DNA of 33,265 bases, from NCBI GenBank assembly GCA_964347045.1, contig CAYFXC010000019.1, positions 1-33,265 of the forward strand, in the 5' to 3' direction. Made by a program: the position numbers and the translations under genes. The notes under the pieces are model-generated. The model was given only the letters and a program-made list of their open reading frames with translations, was not told where the DNA came from and ran no database searches. This DNA comes from an uncultured archaeon. GTDB lineage: Archaea; Asgardarchaeota; Hermodarchaeia; Hermodarchaeales; Hermodarchaeaceae. How positions within the stretch are numbered: the stretch's first letter is position 1; each line of letters opens with the position of its first letter. Positions 1 through 27,972 of this stretch are shown in pieces.

Positions 1-15
1 AACAAGAGGAATCGT

Positions 16-53
16 GCTATTCTGACACTTTTGCATGTTATTGTGACACTTTT
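16..53. repeat. Tandem 17-bp direct repeat with 21-bp period (GYTATTSTGACACTTTT x2)
   Basis: 16-32 GCTATTCTGACACTTTT vs 37-53 GTTATTGTGACACTTTT, 15/17 identical; core TGACACTTTT at 23-32 and 44-53. Confidence 0.75.
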
Positions 54-73
54 TGGCAGAATACAATGGTTAT

Positions 74-195
74 TGCATAATCTGGAGTTTCCCCGTGGTG
101 ATACCTTGGGAGACTTATGTGCGGTAAGGAGTCTGGGTATATAAATCCGAGAACACGGGTGTTGCACTTTGGTGGGGTGGACGACCATTTCTTTT
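74..195 (+). repeat. Structured non-coding repeat, copy 1 (ncRNA-like or recombination-site-like)
   Basis: Shares ordered blocks with 1092-1216: GATACYTTGG (100-109), TGTGCGGTA (118-126), AACACGGGTGTTG (152-164), TGGGGTGGACGACCA (173-187), then a T-rich tract. Confidence 0.8.
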
Positions 196-215
196 AGGTG
201 TATTTGGGTTAGTGA

Positions 216-1019
216 TTAGGCAAGTTTTGTGGCTTCGATGGCTAGGGAATGGGGGATTTTGTGGTGTTTTGCCATGGGAGGATGGGCTTTGATACCTTTT
301 TTGGTGGGTTGTGGTTCGTCGAGTTGGGTTATTGTGAAACCGTGGGTGGTTAGGGTTTTCATGTATTCGGATAGGGGTCGGTGGTATCCGGTGGTTGTGA
401 AGGGGGCGGGTAGTCGGTTATGTTTCCATTCGAAAGGGTAGCTATGGCTTTGGAGATAGTTGGATGTCCAGTTGTAGAGGTACTCTTTCGTTCCGTTTCG
501 ACGTGTGCGGGTTTTCCATCCACTTACTTGTTTTCCGTTCAAAACGCGCCAGAGTGAAAAACAGGGGTGCGCAAGTACAATGACGAGTCGTCCCTTTGGT
601 TTCAGAATGCGAGCGATTTCGGCAATTGTTCCCGCGTAATCGTGTATGTCCATTATCGCCATGTAACAATAGGCAACATCGAAGTGTTGCGATTGGAGCA
701 TGTGGAGGTCCGCAGCATCAGTGGCATAGTATGTGATGCCTAACGGATGGCGTTTTTCCTCAGCTATTGCAGCTTGTATCAGTGCTTCACTAATGTCAAT
801 TGCCGTAACCTTTGCACCGGCCTTTGCAAAAAATCGGGCAAAACATCCCTCGCCACAGCCTATATCCAACACTTTCATCCCCGCCACATTCCCCATCAAT
901 TGTATAAGGGCAGGACCATTCAAATGTTCGGAGTAGTAGTTCTTTCCACTTCGCACGAATTCTACCCAACTTTCGGCAGCCTTATTCCACTGCTCCCTAT
1001 TACCTTCACCAGATTTCAA
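216..1019 (-). CDS. Class I SAM-dependent methyltransferase
   Basis: Motif I VLDIGCGEG, AIDIS motif II, FDV..., RILKPKGRL; TTG start. Confidence 0.9.
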   Translation of the reverse strand: MKSGEGNREQWNKAAESWVEFVRSGKNYYSEHLNGPALIQLMGNVAGMKVLDIGCGEGCFARFFAKAGAKVTAIDISEALIQAAIAEEKRHPLGITYYATDAADLHMLQSQHFDVAYCYMAIMDIHDYAGTIAEIARILKPKGRLVIVLAHPCFSLWRVLNGKQVSGWKTRTRRNGTKEYLYNWTSNYLQSHSYPFEWKHNRLPAPFTTTGYHRPLSEYMKTLTTHGFTITQLDEPQPTKKGIKAHPPMAKHHKIPHSLAIEATKLA

Positions 1020-1091
1020 ATGATCAACTCCGGGTGTTTTAGCACTTTGTAATAAATCTATAGTGTACTCAGAAAAGTACCTGCCTAAGAA

Positions 1092-1216
1092 TGCATTTCT
1101 TCTGAGGTGTCCCTCGCAGGGATACTTTGGAAAGGGTGTGCGGTAGAAAGCGGGTGTATGTTGCCGGAAACACGGGTGTTGAACGCTTAGTTGGGGTGGA
1201 CGACCACTTTTTCTTT
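1092..1216 (+). repeat. Structured non-coding repeat, copy 2
   Basis: Blocks GATACTTTGG (1121-1130), TGTGCGGTA (1137-1145), AACACGGGTGTTG (1169-1181), TGGGGTGGACGACCA (1192-1206); 15-bp + strand hairpin 1100-1132. Confidence 0.8.
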
Positions 1217-1240
1217 GTAACCTAATTTGGCTAGCTAGAG

Positions 1241-1402
1241 CTATTTTTCGTTGAAATTTAGAATTGTGAGAAGTTGTTTAGCCTGTTTTTGGTCTGAAAT
1301 TTTTCGAACAATTTCCTTGATTTCATGTCCTGTTATTAGATAAAGGTTGAAGAATTGTGAAGAATTGTCCCAACGAGGATGGGCGTTGCTGTAGTATCTA
1401 TA
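1241..1402 (-). pseudogene. Possible 3' remnant of a gene ending just before repeat copy 2
   Basis: Start-less open frame YRYYSNAHPRWDNSSQFFNLYLITGHEIKEIVRKISDQKQAKQLLTILNFNEK*, bounded upstream by TGA; protein-like amphipathic pattern only. Confidence 0.3.
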
Positions 1403-1531
1403 TCAGCGATACTAGTCCTCCTCTTTTGAAGGGATTTGCTAGTGTGAATATGGTGTCAACTTAAGTTTCTGGAAAAGCTTGATTTTGTGGTTATTTTGAT
1501 TGCAGATAATGAATGATTTTAAATTTCAGCA

Positions 1532-1801
1532 TCATGGCCACAACAAATCGAGAAATCGAATAATGCTGTCTAAAATTCCTGCGGGGATTATACCGATTGC
1601 TGCTAGTAGGCTGATTATAGTTAATGGAAGCATGATAATGTTGATTATAATGAAATAGCGCCAAAAATCTTGGCGGGAAACTTTGTTTATCTTGTATAGG
1701 ATAATCGCTCCTACGAGCATTATGAGCCAAAGTGCAGCAAAGAAATAGAGTCCTATGATCGGATGTCCAAGGTTATATATTTGGATTAGAAAGTCACTCA
1801 C
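1532..1801 (-). CDS. Small membrane protein, 2 TM, hypothetical
   Basis: 89 aa, two long hydrophobic segments separated by a basic loop. Confidence 0.65.
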   Translation of the reverse strand: MSDFLIQIYNLGHPIIGLYFFAALWLIMLVGAIILYKINKVSRQDFWRYFIIINIIMLPLTIISLLAAIGIIPAGILDSIIRFLDLLWP

Positions 1802-2040
1802 ATCCTGATTCCTTTTAGTGATTAATGTTTTTTAGACTTGTGTGGGCTTGAAATAGTGATTGGCCATGCTATCAAATATGCAAGAATAACATAATATTGT
1901 TAAGATTCCGTGTGAATATAAACCGATAATTAGCGTATAGTTTAGAATTTTGCCTAATTTAAATAACTTCTGTTTGACTAAATCTGAGTAAAAAAATCCT
2001 GACTCCTATTATCAAATAGACAAACCGCTTAAAGTATTTT

Positions 2041-2517
2041 TTATTTTGTTTTTATTATTTCAGTATCTGCGTACCTTCCTGTCATAAAGCGAATGATCTT
2101 CCATTGATCATCTGATGAGAGTTGCCAGATTTCCAGAAGTCGTCCGTATACTTTCTCAGTCGGTCCTCCGTTAAGAGGTGTACGTACCTCGATGAAACTT
2201 CCAAGTGCATGGGCTCTGCGTTCATATAAATCGATGAGTTCTCGATTTGGACTAAAAGAGTCTGTCGTGTACTTTGAAATAATGTTGTCAAAGGCCTGTT
2301 GGATAGATTCTCGACCTATGATGTCTTCCGTATGAGGGAACATGAGACCTGCGTCTTCAGCGAAGAAATTACACATATCTTTTGCGCGATCCTCGGAAAA
2401 GGTTCGATCGAGTTCTGCGTTTGTGTTTAACAGAGATTCTTTGTGTAAAACACGCAAGTTGGATAATCCCTGGTCTTCTTTTTGAGACATTTTTTCAGGA
2501 TCGAAATTATTTGGCAT
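2041..2517 (-). CDS. NTF2-like/SnoaL (DUF4440-like) protein
   Basis: FFAEDA.L.......IIGRESI, C-terminal W.L..D..WKI pattern. Confidence 0.75.
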   Translation of the reverse strand: MPNNFDPEKMSQKEDQGLSNLRVLHKESLLNTNAELDRTFSEDRAKDMCNFFAEDAGLMFPHTEDIIGRESIQQAFDNIISKYTTDSFSPNRELIDLYERRAHALGSFIEVRTPLNGGPTEKVYGRLLEIWQLSSDDQWKIIRFMTGRYADTEIIKTK

Positions 2518-2765
2518 ATTATCAACTTTATTAGCTTTCAGAGATAATATTTACTCAATTATGTGAATAGCAAAAGGAGTATGATAATTTCTTAGAAAAT
2601 TAGATCTGGTTTGCAAATACAGAATGTACGATTTGTTTTGTTTTAGGAGAATTAATCCTGCGTTCACAAACTAGCTAGTCTTCAATACTCGAAACTAGGT
2701 CTAAATCGATGATCTTATCGGCTTCGATTTCGTAGATTTTTTAATATATCTCGATTTTTCTTTCA

Positions 2766-3689
2766 TCACGAGTGTGTAGATTTTTTGTAGCTTCGACGAA
2801 TAAGCAAAACCACAACCGCTGAAATTAGCGATATTCCAGCAACAGCAATAATGGTTTTTATGAGTGAGTCATTTTGCAAACCTAAAGGAGGTTCTGGGTT
2901 CCAATTATCATAATTATTTAGAATAACAACATCACAGTCTGCTAGTTCTGTGAATCTTTGTGCATCAAAATAACTACCTGTGAAATCATTGTACCCATTC
3001 CACCCATAATGCATTGGAATTGCATACCTTAAATCAGATTGAATCTTGAGGTCTTCAACTGAATCTGCAGCCTCTGAAGCGGTCATCCACGCATACCCGG
3101 AGACAGGCAGGAGGGCAATATCTGTGGTAATGGATTGCATTTCAGGTATGCGATCTGTATCACCAGCGTGATATATTCGTAATGTGCCAAAATCCATGAT
3201 TACTCCCAAACTTTGGTGTTCAGGTGGATGAAAGAGATTTCCATCTGGTCGGTGTTTATTAACATTATAGGCAGGAACGAATTCAAAGGTGACACCAGGA
3301 TAGGTTAAAGTTTCACCAGGTTCAACTTGAAGATTCCAGCCCGGTGTTTGAGTAGAGGTGATGACAACGGTATTAGCATCGGTTATTTGAGCAATGTCCC
3401 CCGATGAATAATGTGGTCTGTGGTCATGTGTGATTATAATAAAATCCGCAAATTCAGTTATCTCGGGCAGACTAATTGGATCAATGTAGACGACTGTGGT
3501 TGCCGATTTGAATTTGAATCCTTCGTTGTAAAACCATCGGATACTCACACCATTATAGGTAAATTCGTTTCCCGCTTGGATAACCACTTTTGCCGTCACT
3601 GTTTGCTCTAGGTTCATATTAATGAGAATTACCAAGAAGAAAACTATGATGAGAGTGAAATTACGAGTACCTGATTTCATTGGATTCAC
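2766..3689 (-). CDS. Membrane-anchored MBL-fold metallo-hydrolase (UPF0173-like)
   Basis: VYIDP, ITHDHRPH, YHAGDT, ALLPVSG, IPMHYG; N-terminal signal peptide and C-terminal TM with basic tail. Confidence 0.85.
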   Translation of the reverse strand: MNPMKSGTRNFTLIIVFFLVILINMNLEQTVTAKVVIQAGNEFTYNGVSIRWFYNEGFKFKSATTVVYIDPISLPEITEFADFIIITHDHRPHYSSGDIAQITDANTVVITSTQTPGWNLQVEPGETLTYPGVTFEFVPAYNVNKHRPDGNLFHPPEHQSLGVIMDFGTLRIYHAGDTDRIPEMQSITTDIALLPVSGYAWMTASEAADSVEDLKIQSDLRYAIPMHYGWNGYNDFTGSYFDAQRFTELADCDVVILNNYDNWNPEPPLGLQNDSLIKTIIAVAGISLISAVVVLLIRRSYKKSTHS

Positions 3690-4301: not shown

Positions 4302-6341
4302 TTATTCTGTTATCTTTCTTCTTTTTCGAATTATACAAACACTCGCGACTACGACAGAGGAAATAATGGTAATAATGGCAATGCTGCCTGCGACAATTCC
4401 ATTTGTTGGATCTATTCCTATCATGAATGTATAATATTCTCCATTACGTGTATCTTGCACAATGTTGTCATTATAGTCTTGCACTTCAATATAGAAAAGT
4501 ATCTGAGATCCTGCAGGAAATGGGCCTATATCCGCACTAAATATGTCAGATTCAATCAGGAATAATCGTCGGTGTTTCCAATACGAGTTGTCTATGCTGA
4601 ATATGACTTGGACATTGTAGATGTCTGCGCCTAGTGGGTTTTGGGTTATTCGGGCTGATACTTGAATAGTGGTTGTTTCGAAGGGCTGTCGGGGCCAGAA
4701 TGAAACCTCTAGAATTTGGGGGAGATATTGTACAACCTCAACGTAAACTACAGAGGTGTTCGTATATCCATTTGCATCTATTGCTCGAACTTGGATACTA
4801 GTGGATCCATTTCCGGTGACGGTCCAATTATAGAAATAGCGTTTATTGAAGATGTGAGTTGAGGCCAAACGCCATTTTGTATTATTAATATTGACTTGAA
4901 CAGCTACTATAGGGTAACCGTCAAGATCGGATGTATTTATCCAAATTGTGTATGGTGTGCCTTGAGGGATTTGGTCGCCTGAAGAAGGAGAAGTAATGGC
5001 ACAATTGAGACCTTTATCAACTCGAAAATTACGGTGAGCGTGAGTCATCCAACCAGCTGAGTCAAAGACTCGTGCACGGATACTTGTCAACCCATATACC
5101 CCAGTAGCATTCCAGTAATAGGTAGAATGAGTGGAGTTCATTCCCGTGGTGATATCAATCCAAGGGGCATTATTTATTGAAAGTTCAACTTTGTTTACAT
5201 CATTATGTGAATCAGAAATTTCTAAAACGAGAGGAACATTGTCCGTTGGTGGGACAAACTGTGTTGGGGTTGGTGGAACAAACGCCACATTAGGAAATCC
5301 TGGAATTGTTGATACAATGGTGGCGAAATCAGCTAGAGCCGCTGCTGCATTTTTTGTCACTTGTGTTCCTAATTCAAAGGAGTAATCCGGTTGGTTTAGG
5401 GCATCGGCTGAGGAATGAATATACGGATTGCCAAGACCCCCATATTCAAAGAACCACACTGCAGGATCGTTATAGTTCCAAAATGGTGAATGATCACTCA
5501 TTGTTAAGCCAGGAGCGTAGCGAGTGCTAACAGGCAGATTATAAGCGAGTCCAATGGTTTCAGCATGGGTGGCCAAAACTTCACTTGCACCCCCATTGTG
5601 AATGATTTCATATTTTGTATCTACAGGGGCGGATGGATTGTCCCAGATTATCATATCGAAATTGTAGACAGAAGCAATAGGTATGTTACTATCATGAAGG
5701 TAATCGGCAAAAGCACTGCTTCCAAATAATCCGATTTCCTCTGCGTCAAATGCAACAAAATAAAAGGTGTAATTAAATTGATATCGGGAAAGAACCCGAG
5801 CGATTTCAAGAACCGCTGCGACGCCGGAACCATTATCATCGGCTCCTTTTGAGGATGCAGGAAAGGTGTCGTAGTGTGCTCCTACAACGATACATTCGTT
5901 ATTATGGATACTTGCTCCTGGAAGTTTTCCCACCACATTAGTGGCAGATGATCCAAATTCCTGGAAGGAAACCTCTAGCCCTGCTTCTTCAAATTGCTGA
6001 GCAATATATTCAGCTGCTTGTTCATTTCCCTCAGTATCATAGACTCTACTGCCAATAGTGTTTGATAGATGGTTTAGATAATTTTGAAAGCTGGATAGAG
6101 AAATTTGATCAATTATTGCAGGTATTGGAACTGGTTCTTGTGGCTGATAGTTCTCCTCAAATATATAACTTGAAGATAATGGGTGTGGCAAGTATTGAGA
6201 GCTGCTTGTTTCTTGTGAAATAGGAGCTATCTGCGTTTCACTTGTCTGATCTGTTACAGCGTTGAAGGTAGGGGATGGATTGAAAAGGGCAACACCCATG
6301 ATACAAAATGCCAGAATTAAAAATGTAAACTTTCGATTCAA
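4302..6341 (-). CDS. Secreted, membrane-anchored M28 family metallo-aminopeptidase with Ig-like domains
   Basis: GAHYDT, GADDNGSG, DAEEIG, NFDM, SDH, YIHS motifs; signal peptide; beta-rich repeats (Y.WN.T....I.ARA.D..G); C-terminal TM + RKRRK. Confidence 0.9.
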   Translation of the reverse strand: MNRKFTFLILAFCIMGVALFNPSPTFNAVTDQTSETQIAPISQETSSSQYLPHPLSSSYIFEENYQPQEPVPIPAIIDQISLSSFQNYLNHLSNTIGSRVYDTEGNEQAAEYIAQQFEEAGLEVSFQEFGSSATNVVGKLPGASIHNNECIVVGAHYDTFPASSKGADDNGSGVAAVLEIARVLSRYQFNYTFYFVAFDAEEIGLFGSSAFADYLHDSNIPIASVYNFDMIIWDNPSAPVDTKYEIIHNGGASEVLATHAETIGLAYNLPVSTRYAPGLTMSDHSPFWNYNDPAVWFFEYGGLGNPYIHSSADALNQPDYSFELGTQVTKNAAAALADFATIVSTIPGFPNVAFVPPTPTQFVPPTDNVPLVLEISDSHNDVNKVELSINNAPWIDITTGMNSTHSTYYWNATGVYGLTSIRARVFDSAGWMTHAHRNFRVDKGLNCAITSPSSGDQIPQGTPYTIWINTSDLDGYPIVAVQVNINNTKWRLASTHIFNKRYFYNWTVTGNGSTSIQVRAIDANGYTNTSVVYVEVVQYLPQILEVSFWPRQPFETTTIQVSARITQNPLGADIYNVQVIFSIDNSYWKHRRLFLIESDIFSADIGPFPAGSQILFYIEVQDYNDNIVQDTRNGEYYTFMIGIDPTNGIVAGSIAIITIISSVVVASVCIIRKRRKITE

Positions 6342-24181: not shown

Positions 24182-25417
24182 TTAAGCTACATTTTCCCTT
24201 CCTTGATTGGAACTGGAAGTAGCCTTTTTTTGTTCTAGAAGTTTAGATTTTTTTGCCTGCTTATCCGCTCTGTAAAGGAAGAAGAGAATGGTTAAAGGAA
24301 TAGGCATCAACGCTGAAGCAATCATTAAAGGAAATCCTGGAGTAACAGAAAAAGCCAAACCACCGATTAACGGGGATACAGGAGAAAGGGACCGGGCAAT
24401 AAGATTGTACACTGACAAAGAATCTGCTAACTGTCCCCGTGGAATATTATGAGATAACACTGCACTATTAAGCGAGAAACAATGAACGAATCCACTAAGT
24501 GCATAAATAATAGGTAACAGAGTAACTGAGGGACTTATTACTAACAACCCAAAAAACCCAAAGGTACCAAGCACAGGAAATACTAGGCCTCCTACATATG
24601 ACCACCGATCACCAACCCAACCCATGAGCGGTCCTAAAATAACCCCCGCGGCATTAGATATTGATCCTAAAACACCAATTTGAGCCTCAATTAAGCCCCA
24701 TCGATCAAAAAGGAATAATGGTACAAACATATTTGCTATCCAATAAAGGGTGCCAATCGTAAACCAGAATATCGTCATGAAAATAAAAACCCGGTTTCTT
24801 AGGAATTCCCAGCTCCTTTCCTTGGCTCTTTCTTCTTTGGTAGTTGTAATAGGTGAAATCGGAAGTACAAGTATTGTACTAGCAATAAACATGATCGCTG
24901 TGATGAGAAATACTAGTTCATAACCATACGCTGATATGATAAATCCACCCATCACAGGACCTGGTATGCCAGCTAGTGCAATTGCGGCGGAAGACCCTCC
25001 GAAGGCTCGACCCCTGTGAGAACCTCCTGATAGACTAGTAATGTATGCACCAATCGGTGCTGCTGCAACCATACTTGCTCCTTCAAGGAACGCTCCAATC
25101 AATGTTACTTGCCATGATACTGCGAAAAGGTAAATGAGAGGTGCAGGTATTATCACTAACCATCCAAGGAGCATAGTACGTTTTTCACCAAGTCTGGCAG
25201 TCAAAAAACCCCCCAAACCAATGAACAACAATGTGCTAATTAGGAACACGGTTGACCAATACCCCACTTGTATCGAGTTCGCACCCAATTCTTCTCGCAT
25301 ATATAGGCCTATGAAGTTGCTATACAAGAAGACACCCAAAATCCATGTCGAATTGGCAGTTAAAAGGAGGACATAACTGCGTCGAGGACGCTGAACATTG
25401 TTTTCCCCCGCTTCCAT
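24182..25417 (-). CDS. MFS transporter
   Basis: 12 TM pattern, GGFLTARLGEKR and GWVGDRW motifs. Confidence 0.88.
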   Translation of the reverse strand: MEAGENNVQRPRRSYVLLLTANSTWILGVFLYSNFIGLYMREELGANSIQVGYWSTVFLISTLLFIGLGGFLTARLGEKRTMLLGWLVIIPAPLIYLFAVSWQVTLIGAFLEGASMVAAAPIGAYITSLSGGSHRGRAFGGSSAAIALAGIPGPVMGGFIISAYGYELVFLITAIMFIASTILVLPISPITTTKEERAKERSWEFLRNRVFIFMTIFWFTIGTLYWIANMFVPLFLFDRWGLIEAQIGVLGSISNAAGVILGPLMGWVGDRWSYVGGLVFPVLGTFGFFGLLVISPSVTLLPIIYALSGFVHCFSLNSAVLSHNIPRGQLADSLSVYNLIARSLSPVSPLIGGLAFSVTPGFPLMIASALMPIPLTILFFLYRADKQAKKSKLLEQKKATSSSNQGRENVA

Positions 25418-25497: not shown

Positions 25498-26721
25498 TTA
25501 TTGATGACTGGGTGGACGGTTCTGCTGTCTAATTAATTCATGAAGTTCTGTTCTAAGTCTAATAAGTAATGACACCATTTGTTTCTCATAATCTTCCCAT
25601 AGAGCTATTCGTGATTGATTAATATCCTGATATAACTCTACAGAAGGGCTTTGTAGATACTCGCCTAATTTTCCCACTGTTGTTTTTAGACTTGGCATTT
25701 GGGGTAATAGGCGCTGTTCAAGATCTTCAAGCAAAGCAAGACTATGGGTAACACCAATAAGTAATTGATTGGCATCTAATCTTTCAGGAATAAATCCTGA
25801 AACCTCCACTGGATCTGTTTGGATATATTCAAGCCACCACTTCTCTGCTATTCCTTCATAACTAAGCATCATTCGGATGATAGATAGAATTGCTTGTTGA
25901 TTATAGTAATCCGCTTGTCTTCGGGCTTCTATAAATTTTTGAAAGTTACGAGTAAGCTCATTCAATTCATTAACAGACTTTCGAGCATCTTTTACGAACT
26001 GGTCCAAAGTTTTTAGATCTTCAATAGTGGAATCATCCAGTTGAAGCATTCCACGCCATCCCGAAAAAATATCTAAAAGTCCGGAAAGATTTCGGAGAAA
26101 ATCATTTTTGGTTGGAGCATTATATGTCGCAGCTAGCAATTGCCGCATTTGGGAAAGGAGTTTCTGGTAGTTCACCTTCTTTACGCGATTAAGGCGTAAC
26201 TCGACTATCTGGAGAAGAGGGCTTTCTAATCCTTTGATAAAGGAATCCATTTCTACTAATCTGTCCAGAAGCTGTCGAGTTTCTTTTACGTAATCCAGAA
26301 AATCGTTGGTGGCATTATTCACCACTAAACGTATGTAGCCCTCATCCAATTTATGGCTCTTTAGATGCTCTAGAATATCATCTTTTCCTTGGGTAAGAAT
26401 CTTGATGTTGTCTTCGGTGAAATCAAGGTTTTCAACTAATTCTAGAAACCATGTTTGCCATTGTTCAATGTTGGTTAACATCCTATCAATAGTTGATAGG
26501 CTGGAAATTAATTGATTTAGCCACCATTTCTCAGCTCGAGCCAGTCGTATAAAAATGGGTTCTTCGCTTTGACCGATTTGCTCTATAGGAAGCAAAGTTT
26601 CCATTTTCGAGATTATGGTAGGCGAGTATAGTTTAGAATAAAACTCTTTCATAATCAGCAGATACGCCAGTAGAGCATCTCGAACCGCTAGCTCTTTGCT
26701 TGCTACCGCTGTCTTGCTCAT
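25498..26721 (-). CDS. Hypothetical all-helical protein
   Basis: 407-aa ORF, amphipathic L/E/Q/K-rich, no recognisable motif. Confidence 0.7.
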   Translation of the reverse strand: MSKTAVASKELAVRDALLAYLLIMKEFYSKLYSPTIISKMETLLPIEQIGQSEEPIFIRLARAEKWWLNQLISSLSTIDRMLTNIEQWQTWFLELVENLDFTEDNIKILTQGKDDILEHLKSHKLDEGYIRLVVNNATNDFLDYVKETRQLLDRLVEMDSFIKGLESPLLQIVELRLNRVKKVNYQKLLSQMRQLLAATYNAPTKNDFLRNLSGLLDIFSGWRGMLQLDDSTIEDLKTLDQFVKDARKSVNELNELTRNFQKFIEARRQADYYNQQAILSIIRMMLSYEGIAEKWWLEYIQTDPVEVSGFIPERLDANQLLIGVTHSLALLEDLEQRLLPQMPSLKTTVGKLGEYLQSPSVELYQDINQSRIALWEDYEKQMVSLLIRLRTELHELIRQQNRPPSHQ

Positions 26722-27009: not shown

Positions 27010-27972
27010 TCAAGTCTTCAATTGATTCTCGTTATTTCGTGTTCGGAGAAGAGGAATGAGCATCGCCGCTATCATAACTAAAACAATTCCTATCCAATCA
27101 ATTAGAGTAGGTACTTCTCCAAGGAACAAAAACGCTAGAATGGCGATTTGAGCTAACATCGTACTATTAATGATTGTTGTTTCCAATGCTGTGAGTCGTC
27201 GCATTGACCAATTCCACAATGTAAAAGCCAAAGCAGTATTTACAATTGCTAGCCAAACAATAATGACAATTCCCCAAAATGAAAGTGTAAAGGTAGGGGT
27301 CATCAGAAAACCTCCAATTATCAGGAATAGAGCTCCAATTGTCATACTAATTGCAGTTACAACAAGTGCAGAGACTTCTTGAGATCGGTTGATTCCTCGT
27401 CCAATAATTGCTGAGAATGCATTAGCAACTAAACTAATCACAACAACAAGGATACCGAACAATGAACTGGTCAAGATATCAATTGGCCAAAAATAGAAAT
27501 AAGCTCCAAGCAAGGCTACGAGAACAAAAGAAATCTGCTTCTTATTTGGCTTTTCATTCAAGAAGAAGAAGGCAAAAATCACAACAAGAATCGTAGTGAA
27601 GTTGAGGATGAAGCTCACAGTAAGAGCAGTCAACAATGCTAATCCAACAAATTGAGTACCCATAGTGATTGTATAATAAACAAGACCATAGGTGAGTAGA
27701 CGCCGCCACCATGATTTCGGAAGCGCTCTAATTTCTTGGCGGTGGGAAGGTATTGTAAATAATGCCGTTAAAAGTATAATGGCAGCGAGTGTATAACGTA
27801 GTCCAGCAAATATCAGAGGAGGGATTTCTAGGAGACCAAATTTGATGATGATAAAGGACGAAGACCATAGTATTGTGACAAAAAAAGCGGTTACAACTGC
27901 TAACCAATACGTTTTGTCAATCTTCCGATTGAGTACAGAAGGAGTAGCTGAATTCGTCACAACACAACCCAC
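27010..27972 (-). CDS. EamA/DMT family transporter
   Basis: LWSSSF, PPL.FAGLRY, FLNEK, FLGE..T duplicated EamA pattern; start uncertain. Confidence 0.9.
   Translation of the reverse strand: MGCVVTNSATPSVLNRKIDKTYWLAVVTAFFVTILWSSSFIIIKFGLLEIPPLIFAGLRYTLAAIILLTALFTIPSHRQEIRALPKSWWRRLLTYGLVYYTITMGTQFVGLALLTALTVSFILNFTTILVVIFAFFFLNEKPNKKQISFVLVALLGAYFYFWPIDILTSSLFGILVVVISLVANAFSAIIGRGINRSQEVSALVVTAISMTIGALFLIIGGFLMTPTFTLSFWGIVIIVWLAIVNTALAFTLWNWSMRRLTALETTIINSTMLAQIAILAFLFLGEVPTLIDWIGIVLVMIAAMLIPLLRTRNNENQLKT

Follow-up and report, generated by a model that had tools for sequence, protein, structure and literature searches.

The 5' end of contig CAYFXC010000019.1 (assembly GCA_964347045.1) of an uncultured Asgard archaeon of the family Hermodarchaeaceae, which was analysed as a window of 33,265 nucleotides, carries a methyltransferase gene flanked by two copies of a repeat of ~125 nt. 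The following features were delineated:

80-202 (+): repeat copy A, ~125 nt, with a degenerate hairpin 1 at ~81-114, the conserved motif AACACGGGTGTTG (152-164), and GGGGTGGACGACCA followed by a T-rich run (174-195).
203-560 (+): G+T-rich tail on the repeat-sense strand, starting at the 3' end of copy A and overlapping the last ~115 codons of the methyltransferase on the opposite strand.
216-1019 (-): class I SAM-dependent methyltransferase, 267 aa, stop codon at 216-218.
1096-1221 (+): repeat copy B, with hairpin 1 at ~1098-1134 and GGGGTGGACGACCAC followed by a T-run at 1193-1216; its left edge (1084-1096) resembles the last bases of 16S rRNA plus flank (CCTAAGAA.CATTT).
1222-1500 (+): weaker G+T-rich tail of copy B (G+T 0.61, GC skew 0.25), with no ORF of 40 aa or more within 1222-1490.

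The first-pass annotation had described a steep gradient in G+T on the + strand within the methyltransferase gene, and all five of its counts were confirmed exactly (45/60, 49/60, and 45/60 at 241-300, 301-360, and 361-420; 16/60 at 841-900; 24/60 at 961-1020). The 240-nt interval 186-425 has a G+T of 0.771, which is the maximum of the window (mean 0.514, sd 0.055), about 5 sd above the genome mean, and among the five most extreme 240-nt intervals of the 2.58-Mb genome (mean 0.50, sd 0.050). Within the tail, G+T amounts to 0.795 at 203-330, 0.715 at 331-460, and 0.57 at 461-600, and GC skew in the first 240 nt after the repeat is 0.60. The anomaly is confined to the 3' third of the gene (~186-560). 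In contrast, the low G+T at 841-900 is ordinary, as it corresponds to the G/T-rich codons of the GxGxG SAM-binding motif on the coding strand, is also seen in the ortholog, and is not extreme at the 240-nt scale. While the annotated C-terminal peptide is correct and the frame is indeed open, an open frame is not informative here, since an A+C-rich strand can hardly contain stop codons.

The skewed stretch is the genuine, conserved C-terminus of the methyltransferase. A profile search identified Pfam domains Methyltransf_11/25 (E = 1.5e-21) and Methyltransf_23, more than 100 full-length homologs were found, and a full-length alignment with 12 homologs showed that all 28 family-invariant residues in the last 75 aa are kept. 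The bias sits mainly at third codon positions. Third-position A+C on the coding strand rises from 0.42 to 0.61 and 0.83 over the thirds of the gene, which is the largest rise among 2,347 ORFs called in the genome (4.1 sd). The last third carries 84% A/C at third positions as well as replacements towards A/C-rich codons (EE to KK, V to I/T/M, Y to H, R to K, D to N). The closest ortholog outside the genus (77% aa identity, four assemblies, different gene neighbours) has no repeat at its locus and no comparable skew, with a coding-strand A+C of at most 0.60 per 120 nt and a third-position A+C of 0.55-0.65 at codons 201-240, where the gene studied here has 0.95. In the last third, the coding-strand differences (written ortholog > window) are T>C 23, G>A 17, and T>A 7, against C>T 2 and A>G 3.

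Copy A is supported by pairwise and multiple alignments together with nhmmer (E = 2.7e-28). The repeat copies the sequence immediately after the 16S rRNA 3' end. It contains a covarying hairpin and ends in a small hairpin plus a T-run. No Rfam family matched positions 1-3000 of the window at E <= 1, and on the locus of a second contig (C26) only the 16S rRNA was matched. The genome contains 8 copies in the same orientation, and 12 of the 14 other genomes of the genus have the repeat; 67 further copies were scored in 12 related genomes (11 same-genus, 1 sister-genus). All copies on a contig share one orientation, and all arrays with an assembled 16S are co-oriented with it. The repeats separate cassettes of 0.3-7 kb with one or two accessory genes. 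The first ORF after a repeat is forward in 28 cases, reverse in 32, and absent in 11.

Notably, all 75 copies are followed by a G+T-rich tail on the repeat-sense strand. In this genome, tail G+T ranges from 0.59 to 0.75 (mean 0.656, z = 8.8), and all 67 tails in the related genomes exceed 0.5, with G+T falling from 0.64 to about 0.55 over about 500 nt and being lowest, at 0.50, just upstream of the repeats. With increasing distance from the repeat, third-position G+T on the repeat-sense strand falls from 0.68-0.72 to 0.51 in forward genes and from 0.75 to 0.55 in reverse genes, while G+T in non-coding DNA falls from 0.63 to 0.53. GC skew falls from 0.37 to 0.06, whereas G+C content stays within 0.42-0.48 with no downward trend. 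In 14 forward genes, third-position G+T is 0.70 over the first 80 codons against 0.50 for the rest (Wilcoxon p = 0.001), and in 19 reverse genes, third-position A+C is 0.71 over the last 80 codons against 0.55 (p = 0.0006), although orthologous cassettes in related genomes are not independent samples and these p-values, therefore, overstate the evidence. Downstream of 3,470 other T-runs, G+T is 0.514 and GC skew 0.007, and terminal third-position values across all genes are 0.51-0.515 (sd 0.08). The steep part of the gradient spans about 450-600 nt in cassettes under 1 kb, of 1-2 kb, and over 2 kb alike. Since the skew has the same strand sign whether a gene is co-oriented or opposed, it is a property of the DNA strand. 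It should be noted that the most extreme skew regions of the genome are not dominated by repeat copies, because highly expressed genes are A/C-rich at third positions along their whole length.

A mirror case is provided by an FAD oxidoreductase that reads away from its repeat. Compared with an ortholog at a locus without the repeat, the cassette copy from a related metagenome contig differs 35 times towards G/T and 9 times towards A/C in its first 120 codons (A>G 20, C>T 8), while the copy of this genome shows a weaker excess (37 against 27), and in both the ratio reverses distally. However, this comparison gave only partial separation, as the ortholog at the locus without the repeat still has a third-position G+T of 0.68 at its start (against 0.75-0.85), and some of the bias can therefore persist without the repeat or be intrinsic to the gene.

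Furthermore, the methyltransferase cassette with both repeats is present in one same-genus genome (88% nt identity), which allowed divergence to be followed along the gene. Third-position divergence is 8.6% at codons 1-140, 20% at codons 190-230, and 30% at codons 230-267 (Fisher p = 0.0013), corresponding to a 2-3.5-fold elevation near the repeat. Seven of nine changes assigned to the lineage of this genome in the last 37 codons are G>A or T>C on the coding strand. This suggests that the change is ongoing and faster near the repeat, but the rate elevation rests mainly on this one coding pair, since in the other pairs the first 100 nt are mostly non-coding and so less constrained.

Taken together, these results support the inference of the first-pass annotation that a localized, polar mutational process starts at or near the repeat. 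We consider it likely that the skew is the footprint of a local, one-directional, strand-asymmetric mutation pressure that starts at each repeat copy, is specific to this lineage, and fades over about 0.5 kb. On the repeat-sense strand, C is replaced by T and A by G, so that a gene reading towards the repeat becomes A/C-rich at its 3' end and a gene reading away from it becomes G/T-rich at its 5' end, while purifying selection keeps the essential residues. Nucleotide-level selection cannot be formally excluded from sequence alone.

The molecular cause is unresolved. Tentatively, we favour a DNA transaction at the repeat, i.e., a strand-specific nick or a recombination-primed 3' end at the cassette junction, which repeatedly starts strand displacement or patch DNA synthesis towards the tail, so that the repeat-sense strand is either exposed as single-stranded DNA, allowing deamination, or re-made with G.T-type misincorporations. 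A DNA-level rather than a transcriptional event is favoured because the repeat has no conserved TATA-like box and ends in a conserved terminator-like hairpin plus T-run, because homology between the two orthologous cassettes breaks inside the repeat near hairpin 1, with divergence being highest from there rightwards, and because G+C content does not fall, as balanced C>T and A>G changes would predict. However, the placement of the junction within the repeat rests mainly on one orthologous pair, with rough support from the BLAST edges of another. Moreover, no enzyme was identified. Profile searches of this 89%-complete genome for Y1_Tnp, Y2_Tnp, Viral_Rep, and Helitron-like HUH nucleases found nothing, although three of these four searches also found nothing in the control genomes and are thus weak negatives. 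An RT-primed event, one of the mechanisms suggested in the first-pass annotation, has no support, since no reverse transcriptase (RVT_1) was found in this 89%-complete genome. Two tyrosine recombinases are encoded, XerA on contig C12 and a divergent XerA-like protein with a zinc ribbon at the end of contig C9, but both score far below the integron-integrase cut-offs, neither lies on C19 or C26 of this fragmented assembly, and tyrosine recombinases do not leave a priming 3'-OH. A deaminase-type sequence context was not apparent, as dinucleotide odds ratios in the tails equal those of distal DNA. Tail strength does not follow rank from the 16S gene in three arrays, which argues against a scar of residence next to that gene, and the lack of scaling with cassette length argues against exposure proportional to position around a circular cassette.

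Among the alternatives, transcription in the 16S-sense direction that starts in, or leaks through, each repeat is possible but appears somewhat less likely. In this case, the non-template (repeat-sense) strand would be exposed in transcription bubbles or R-loops and accumulate C>T and A>G changes, and the G-rich transcript would stabilise further R-loops. In line with this, G>C and T>A on the presumed non-template strand decay within about 0.5 kb of a fixed point, which resembles the GC-skew zones that appear to occur at promoters and terminators of eukaryotic genes (PMC10030826), the repeat is the 16S rRNA 3' flank, and copy A, which has the strongest tail in this genome, carries a TATA-like box (TATATAAA, 139-146). 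However, as far as can be judged given that Asgard promoter rules are poorly known, the repeat consensus has no TATA-like element of the kind seen upstream of strongly expressed genes of this genome (TTTTAAA), and TATA-likeness does not track tail strength across 72 copies. Furthermore, every complete copy ends in a T-run that should terminate archaeal transcription before the tail, tails next to the 16S gene are not the most skewed in two of three arrays, and G-runs are not enriched in the tails but slightly depleted relative to shuffles, which also speaks against G-quadruplex selection.

Selection keeping the first ~0.5 kb after each repeat G/T-rich on one strand, e.g., as a back-up termination zone with many T-runs, as a protein-binding zone, or to avoid RNA structure, is unlikely. 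While T-runs of 4 or more are more frequent in tails than in composition-matched shuffles (z = 5.7) and the bias is retained in both members of an orthologous cassette pair, the signal is a smooth monotonic decay with no sequence motif shared among tails, and the dinucleotide odds ratios are unchanged. In addition, the bias forces amino-acid replacements and, in forward genes, non-preferred G/T-ending codons, and divergence in the zone is raised, not lowered. Even less likely is a replication-linked asymmetry, in which the arrays are co-oriented with replication and hairpins on the lagging-strand template leave the adjacent stretch single-stranded for longer at each fork passage. The baseline G+T of the array loci in repeat orientation is 0.54, as expected for a leading-sense strand, and the covariation of the hairpins suggests folding of a single strand. 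However, with the fork moving in the repeat-sense direction, the tail would presumably already be copied by the time an Okazaki fragment reaches the hairpin, no origin or replication direction is known for these fragmented assemblies, and the sharp reset at every repeat has no precedent known to us.

Explanations unrelated to the repeat (amino-acid content, translational codon preference, mosaic origin from a donor with other codon usage, an overlapping antisense gene, or an assembly or sequencing artefact) draw on the third-position A+C of 0.8-0.87 in highly expressed genes (ribosomal protein S19, actin, NiFe hydrogenase), on 119 skewed regions genome-wide without the repeat, on a somewhat A/C-rich C-terminus even in the ortholog (0.58-0.62), and on a 70-aa antisense ORF at 229-441, but are largely refuted by the orientation-independent third-position result. 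Genes reading away from the repeats show the opposite, non-preferred codon bias in the same zone, non-coding tails are skewed too, the within-gene gradient is the largest of 2,347 ORFs, the antisense ORF has five stops in the same-genus ortholog, and the pattern recurs in 13 independent assemblies with invariant residues preserved.

Integron gene-cassette arrays with attC sites, including the archaeal and Asgard integrons (Ghaly et al. 2022, PMC9668308), likewise consist of tandem, same-orientation structured repeats separating short cassettes of accessory genes that differ between close relatives. Here, too, the cassette boundary appears to lie inside the repeat, and the hairpin is kept by covariation, as expected for a site used in folded single-stranded form. 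However, inspection of alignments of 72 copies revealed no R''/R' core sites (RYYYAAC ... GTTRRRY) at the ends of a site-wide palindrome: the hairpin covers only about 35 of about 125 nt at the 5' end, and AAC and GTT occur 7 nt apart within AACACGGGTGTTG. Gene orientation is mixed, no integron integrase was found next to the array in this fragmented assembly, the first copy abuts the 16S rRNA 3' end, and our full-text literature searches found no polar composition gradient reported for integron cassettes. It is conceivable, though speculative and in our view unlikely, that the repeats are the recombination sites of an Asgard cassette platform seeded at the 16S rRNA 3' flank, whose reaction begins with a strand-specific nick followed by one-directional strand displacement or low-fidelity synthesis. 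Every captured cassette would then carry a built-in polar hypermutation zone of about 0.5 kb, diversifying the C-termini of inward-facing and the N-termini of outward-facing genes. If the process is tied to cassette recombination, it would be a new mechanistic feature of gene capture in the lineage closest to eukaryotes.

Rolling-circle (HUH nuclease) elements such as IS91/ISCR and Helitrons would combine a hairpin-associated start site, one-directional strand displacement, and capture of neighbouring genes, together giving a polar single-stranded intermediate, but no HUH protein was found in the searches described above, and no element-encoded genes are shared by the cassettes. Diversity-generating retroelements also direct change to the 3' end of a target gene next to a hairpin-containing element. 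Here, however, besides the lack of a detected reverse transcriptase in the 89%-complete genome, there is no template repeat (no second copy of 203-600 exists in the genome), the changes are not adenine-specific, and gene 5' ends and non-coding DNA are affected as well. Transcription-associated strand asymmetry and GC-skew/R-loop zones near transcription starts and ends probably share G>C and T>A on one strand, decaying within about 0.5-1 kb of a fixed point, and locally raised mutation (PMC10030826). They differ in that the repeat has no recognisable promoter by the criteria given above and ends in a T-run, and highly expressed protein genes of this genome have the opposite skew on their coding strand because of codon preference.

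Finally, the heavy-strand composition gradient of vertebrate mitochondrial genomes, which probably reflects time spent single-stranded during strand-displacement replication, shares the accumulation of C>T and A>G changes on one strand, which are read most clearly at third codon positions and graded with distance from a fixed start point. While strand-composition gradients are normally read at the scale of replicons or long transcripts, the gradient described here is sub-kilobase, independent of gene orientation, and anchored at about 75 copies of one repeat across a genus of Asgard archaea, showing accessory genes being driven through directional amino-acid change (E to K, V to I, Y to H) while under purifying selection. 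It provides a sequence-only readout of the direction and reach of whatever molecular event occurs at these repeats, linking an otherwise inert-looking repeat to an active, polar DNA or RNA transaction, and the repeat-plus-tail signature offers a way to find and orient such cassette arrays in other uncultured archaea. In contrast to the mitochondrial gradient, it is repeated at each of many sites in a chromosome, spans about 0.5 kb, and does not scale with the length of the unit.

The five hand counts of G+T on which the first-pass annotation based its strand-composition gradient within the methyltransferase gene are exact. The 240-nt window starting at position 186 has a G+T content of 0.771, which is the highest value in the window as a whole (mean 0.514, sd 0.055) and among the five most extreme in the 2.58-Mb, 83-contig genome (mean 0.50, sd 0.050). 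The relevant features, all within the first 33 kb of contig C19 to which the window corresponds, are as follows:

80-202, repeat copy A
139-146, a TATA-like box within copy A
216-1019, minus strand, class I SAM-dependent methyltransferase
229-441, an ORF antisense to the methyltransferase gene
841-900, a segment of low G+T encoding the SAM-binding motif
1096-1221, repeat copy B

The ORF at 216-1019 was assigned to the class I SAM-dependent methyltransferases through a match to Pfam Methyltransf_11 (E = 1.5e-21). More than 100 database homologs of 266-273 aa align over its whole length, and all 28 residues that are invariant in the last 75 positions of a 13-sequence alignment are kept. Therefore, the skewed stretch is real coding sequence under purifying selection and not an extension read through a repeat. 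However, the open reading frame, which had been highlighted in the first-pass annotation, is no argument in this respect, because an A+C-rich strand has almost no stop codons. Furthermore, the low G+T at 841-900 reflects the G/T-rich coding of the SAM-binding motif and is shared with the ortholog; the anomaly is the 3' third of the gene.

In order to determine at which codon positions the bias resides, the gene was codon-aligned with its closest relative outside the genus (77% aa identity, named 'Promethearchaeota archaeon'), whose locus has AAA ATPase and DinB neighbours. Third-position A+C on the coding strand is 0.95 at codons 201-240 in the window gene, compared to 0.55-0.65 in the relative. 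In the last third, the differences run T>C 23, G>A 17, and T>A 7, against C>T 2 and A>G 3. First and second positions shift as well, giving EE to KK, V to I/T/M, Y to H, R to K, and D to N. Notably, among 2,347 ORF calls, which are admittedly crude, this gene has the largest rise in third-position A+C from its first to its last third (0.42 to 0.83).

The gene is flanked by repeat copies A and B. Six more copies lie on contig C26, all in one orientation and 0.45-1.8 kb apart, and there are none elsewhere in the genome. C26 ends in the 16S rRNA gene, and the first copy begins directly after the 16S 3' end (GGATCACCTCCT, then AAGAAATCATTT...), which also holds in a same-genus and a sister-genus genome. 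In addition, an 11-nt copy of the 16S 3' end (GGATCACCTCC) lies 37 nt upstream of the partial repeat copy inside the array (C26 ~24862-24872, oriented array position 2792), and copy B keeps ACCTgCCTAAGAA. The repeated unit therefore seems to include the last bases of the 16S rRNA gene. Interestingly, the 16S rRNA gene of this genome and of one same-genus genome carries an insertion of about 90-95 nt in place of the helix-45 loop, between GTAGCCGTAAC and TTACCCTGCGGCTGGATCACCTCCT (C26 ~27055-27150, minus strand; ~12056-12150 in L001, an extracted locus of C26). The Rfam match ends before this insertion, which may be an rRNA intron, and a sister-genus genome has the normal GTAGCCGTAGGGGAACCTGCGG.

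The unit has a 5' hairpin of about 35 nt with clear covariation among copies, followed by the conserved motifs AACACGGGTGTTG and GGGGTGGACGACCA and then a T-run. The family is present in 12 of the 14 other same-genus genomes searched, 1 of 4 of a sister genus, and none of 22 other genomes of the phylum, and it always occurs in same-orientation arrays. Between copies lie one or two accessory genes in either orientation. The first cassette after the 16S gene contains, on the repeat-sense strand, a 44-aa ORF with four CxxC pairs (zinc-ribbon-like; C26 ~26587-26721; L001 11722-11588, minus strand), which is preceded by another ORF of 52 aa. The methyltransferase cassette was not found in 12 same-genus genomes, but is present, with both repeats, in another (88% nt identity). 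In that pair, high identity ends inside the repeats near the first hairpin, which suggests that cassette boundaries lie there, although this position rests mainly on a single orthologous pair.

We next asked whether the skew is anchored at the repeats. In this genome, the 240 nt after each of the 8 copies have a G+T content of 0.59-0.75 on the repeat-sense strand (mean 0.656, z = 8.8 against random windows). Using a profile HMM, 67 further copies were located in 17 loci from 12 related genomes, and all 67 tails exceed 0.5. Mean G+T is 0.64 in the first 60 nt, falls steadily to about 0.55 by 500-600 nt, and is lowest (0.50) just upstream of the next repeat. When split by codon position and by orientation of the overlapping gene, G+T on the repeat-sense strand at third positions falls from 0.68-0.72 to 0.51 in forward genes and from 0.75 to 0.55 in reverse genes. 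In non-coding DNA it falls from 0.63 to 0.53. GC skew falls from 0.37 to 0.06 and AT skew rises from -0.22 to -0.03, while G+C content stays within 0.42-0.48 with no downward trend.

The same was seen gene by gene: 14 forward genes have a third-position G+T of 0.70 in their first 80 codons against 0.50 in the rest, and 19 reverse genes have a third-position A+C of 0.71 in their last 80 codons against 0.55 (Wilcoxon p about 0.001 each). It should be noted that related genomes share cassettes, and the samples are therefore not independent. As controls, G+T is 0.514 and GC skew 0.007 downstream of 3,470 other T-runs, and the terminal 80 codons average 0.51-0.515 (sd 0.08) across all genes. Furthermore, the steep part of the gradient has the same absolute length in short, medium, and long cassettes. 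Thus, the skew is anchored at the repeats, polar, and independent of gene orientation.

A mirror case is provided by an FAD-dependent oxidoreductase that reads away from its repeat, for which two cassette copies were compared with an ortholog at a locus without the repeat. In the first 120 codons, the copy from a related metagenome contig differs 35 times towards G/T and 9 times towards A/C on its own coding strand (A>G 20, C>T 8), whereas this genome's copy shows 37 against 27, and the ratio reverses distally in both. This is the opposite coding-strand change to that of the methyltransferase, and the same change on the repeat-sense strand. However, the no-repeat ortholog still has a third-position G+T of 0.68 at its start, so the separation is partial.

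Between the two orthologous methyltransferase cassettes, third-position divergence is 8.6% over codons 1-140, 20% over 190-230, and 30% over 230-267 (Fisher p = 0.0013), although the evidence for an elevated rate again rests mainly on this one pair. With the distant ortholog as outgroup, seven of nine changes on this genome's lineage in the last 37 codons are G>A or T>C, and the protein series EEGVKV/HYRVPQ, then EDGVKA/HYKIPH, then KKGIKA/HHKIPH shows the direction of travel.

Taken together, these results show a strand-asymmetric, locally elevated substitution process that starts at the repeat and runs about 0.5 kb in the 16S-sense direction, and we infer that the repeat-sense strand is recurrently single-stranded or newly synthesised there. 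As to the cause, we slightly and only tentatively favour a DNA transaction at the repeat, namely a nick or a recombination-primed 3' end followed by strand displacement or patch synthesis. The repeat ends in a terminator-like hairpin and T-run and, as far as could be judged from the sequences of its copies, has no conserved TATA-like box. Moreover, divergence between orthologous cassettes is highest from the putative junction rightwards, and the G+C content does not fall, which suggests balanced C>T and A>G input. No responsible enzyme was found in the searches made of this 83-contig assembly. A divergent XerA-like tyrosine recombinase with a C-terminal zinc ribbon, located at the very end of contig C9 (~121087-122139; 5088-6140, plus strand, of the extracted locus L116) next to an endonuclease V / 'endonuclease dU'-like gene (C9 ~120345-120941; L116 4346-4942, minus strand), is a candidate recombinase for the arrays, but no link was shown.

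Transcription with R-loops remains a strong rival, even if we consider it somewhat more doubtful. The shape of the GC-skew decay and the rRNA-flank origin of the repeat fit it. Copy A has a perfect TATA-like box (TATATAAA) where other copies have GTATGATG, but across 72 copies this does not correlate with tail skew. Selection at the nucleotide level appears unlikely and a replication effect more so, but neither can be excluded. No deaminase-like sequence context and no G-run enrichment is present, and tail strength is unrelated to distance from the 16S gene.

Codon preference accounts for most of the other 119 skewed regions of the genome, as highly expressed genes (ribosomal protein S19, actin, and NiFe hydrogenase subunits; C41 6229-6582, C30 2903-4045, C24 3-398, C3 92560-93762, and C15 46589-48007, with the actin 5' end appearing both at the start of C24 and on C30) have extreme C/A-ending codon usage (third-position C about 0.6, A+C 0.8-0.87). 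However, it cannot explain G/T-rich third positions in forward genes of the tails or skewed non-coding tails, and protein composition and mosaic origin fail for the same reason. The antisense ORF is broken in the ortholog. Against an artefact, the skew recurs in 13 independent assemblies, and selection has preserved the invariant residues. Contig C13 starts with a poly-G run of about 55 nt (positions 1-55), a typical sequencing or assembly artefact.

We found no report of a polar composition gradient anchored at cassette-junction repeats, whereas local strand asymmetry as such is known. The arrays resemble integron cassette arrays, which are known in Asgard archaea (PMC9668308), but they fail the attC architecture and ORF-orientation criteria, and no integron integrase is adjacent in this fragmented assembly. 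The system is not a diversity-generating retroelement. The footprint itself resembles the mitochondrial single-strand gradient and the transcription-linked skews of eukaryotic genes, while differing in scale and in being repeated at each of many sites.
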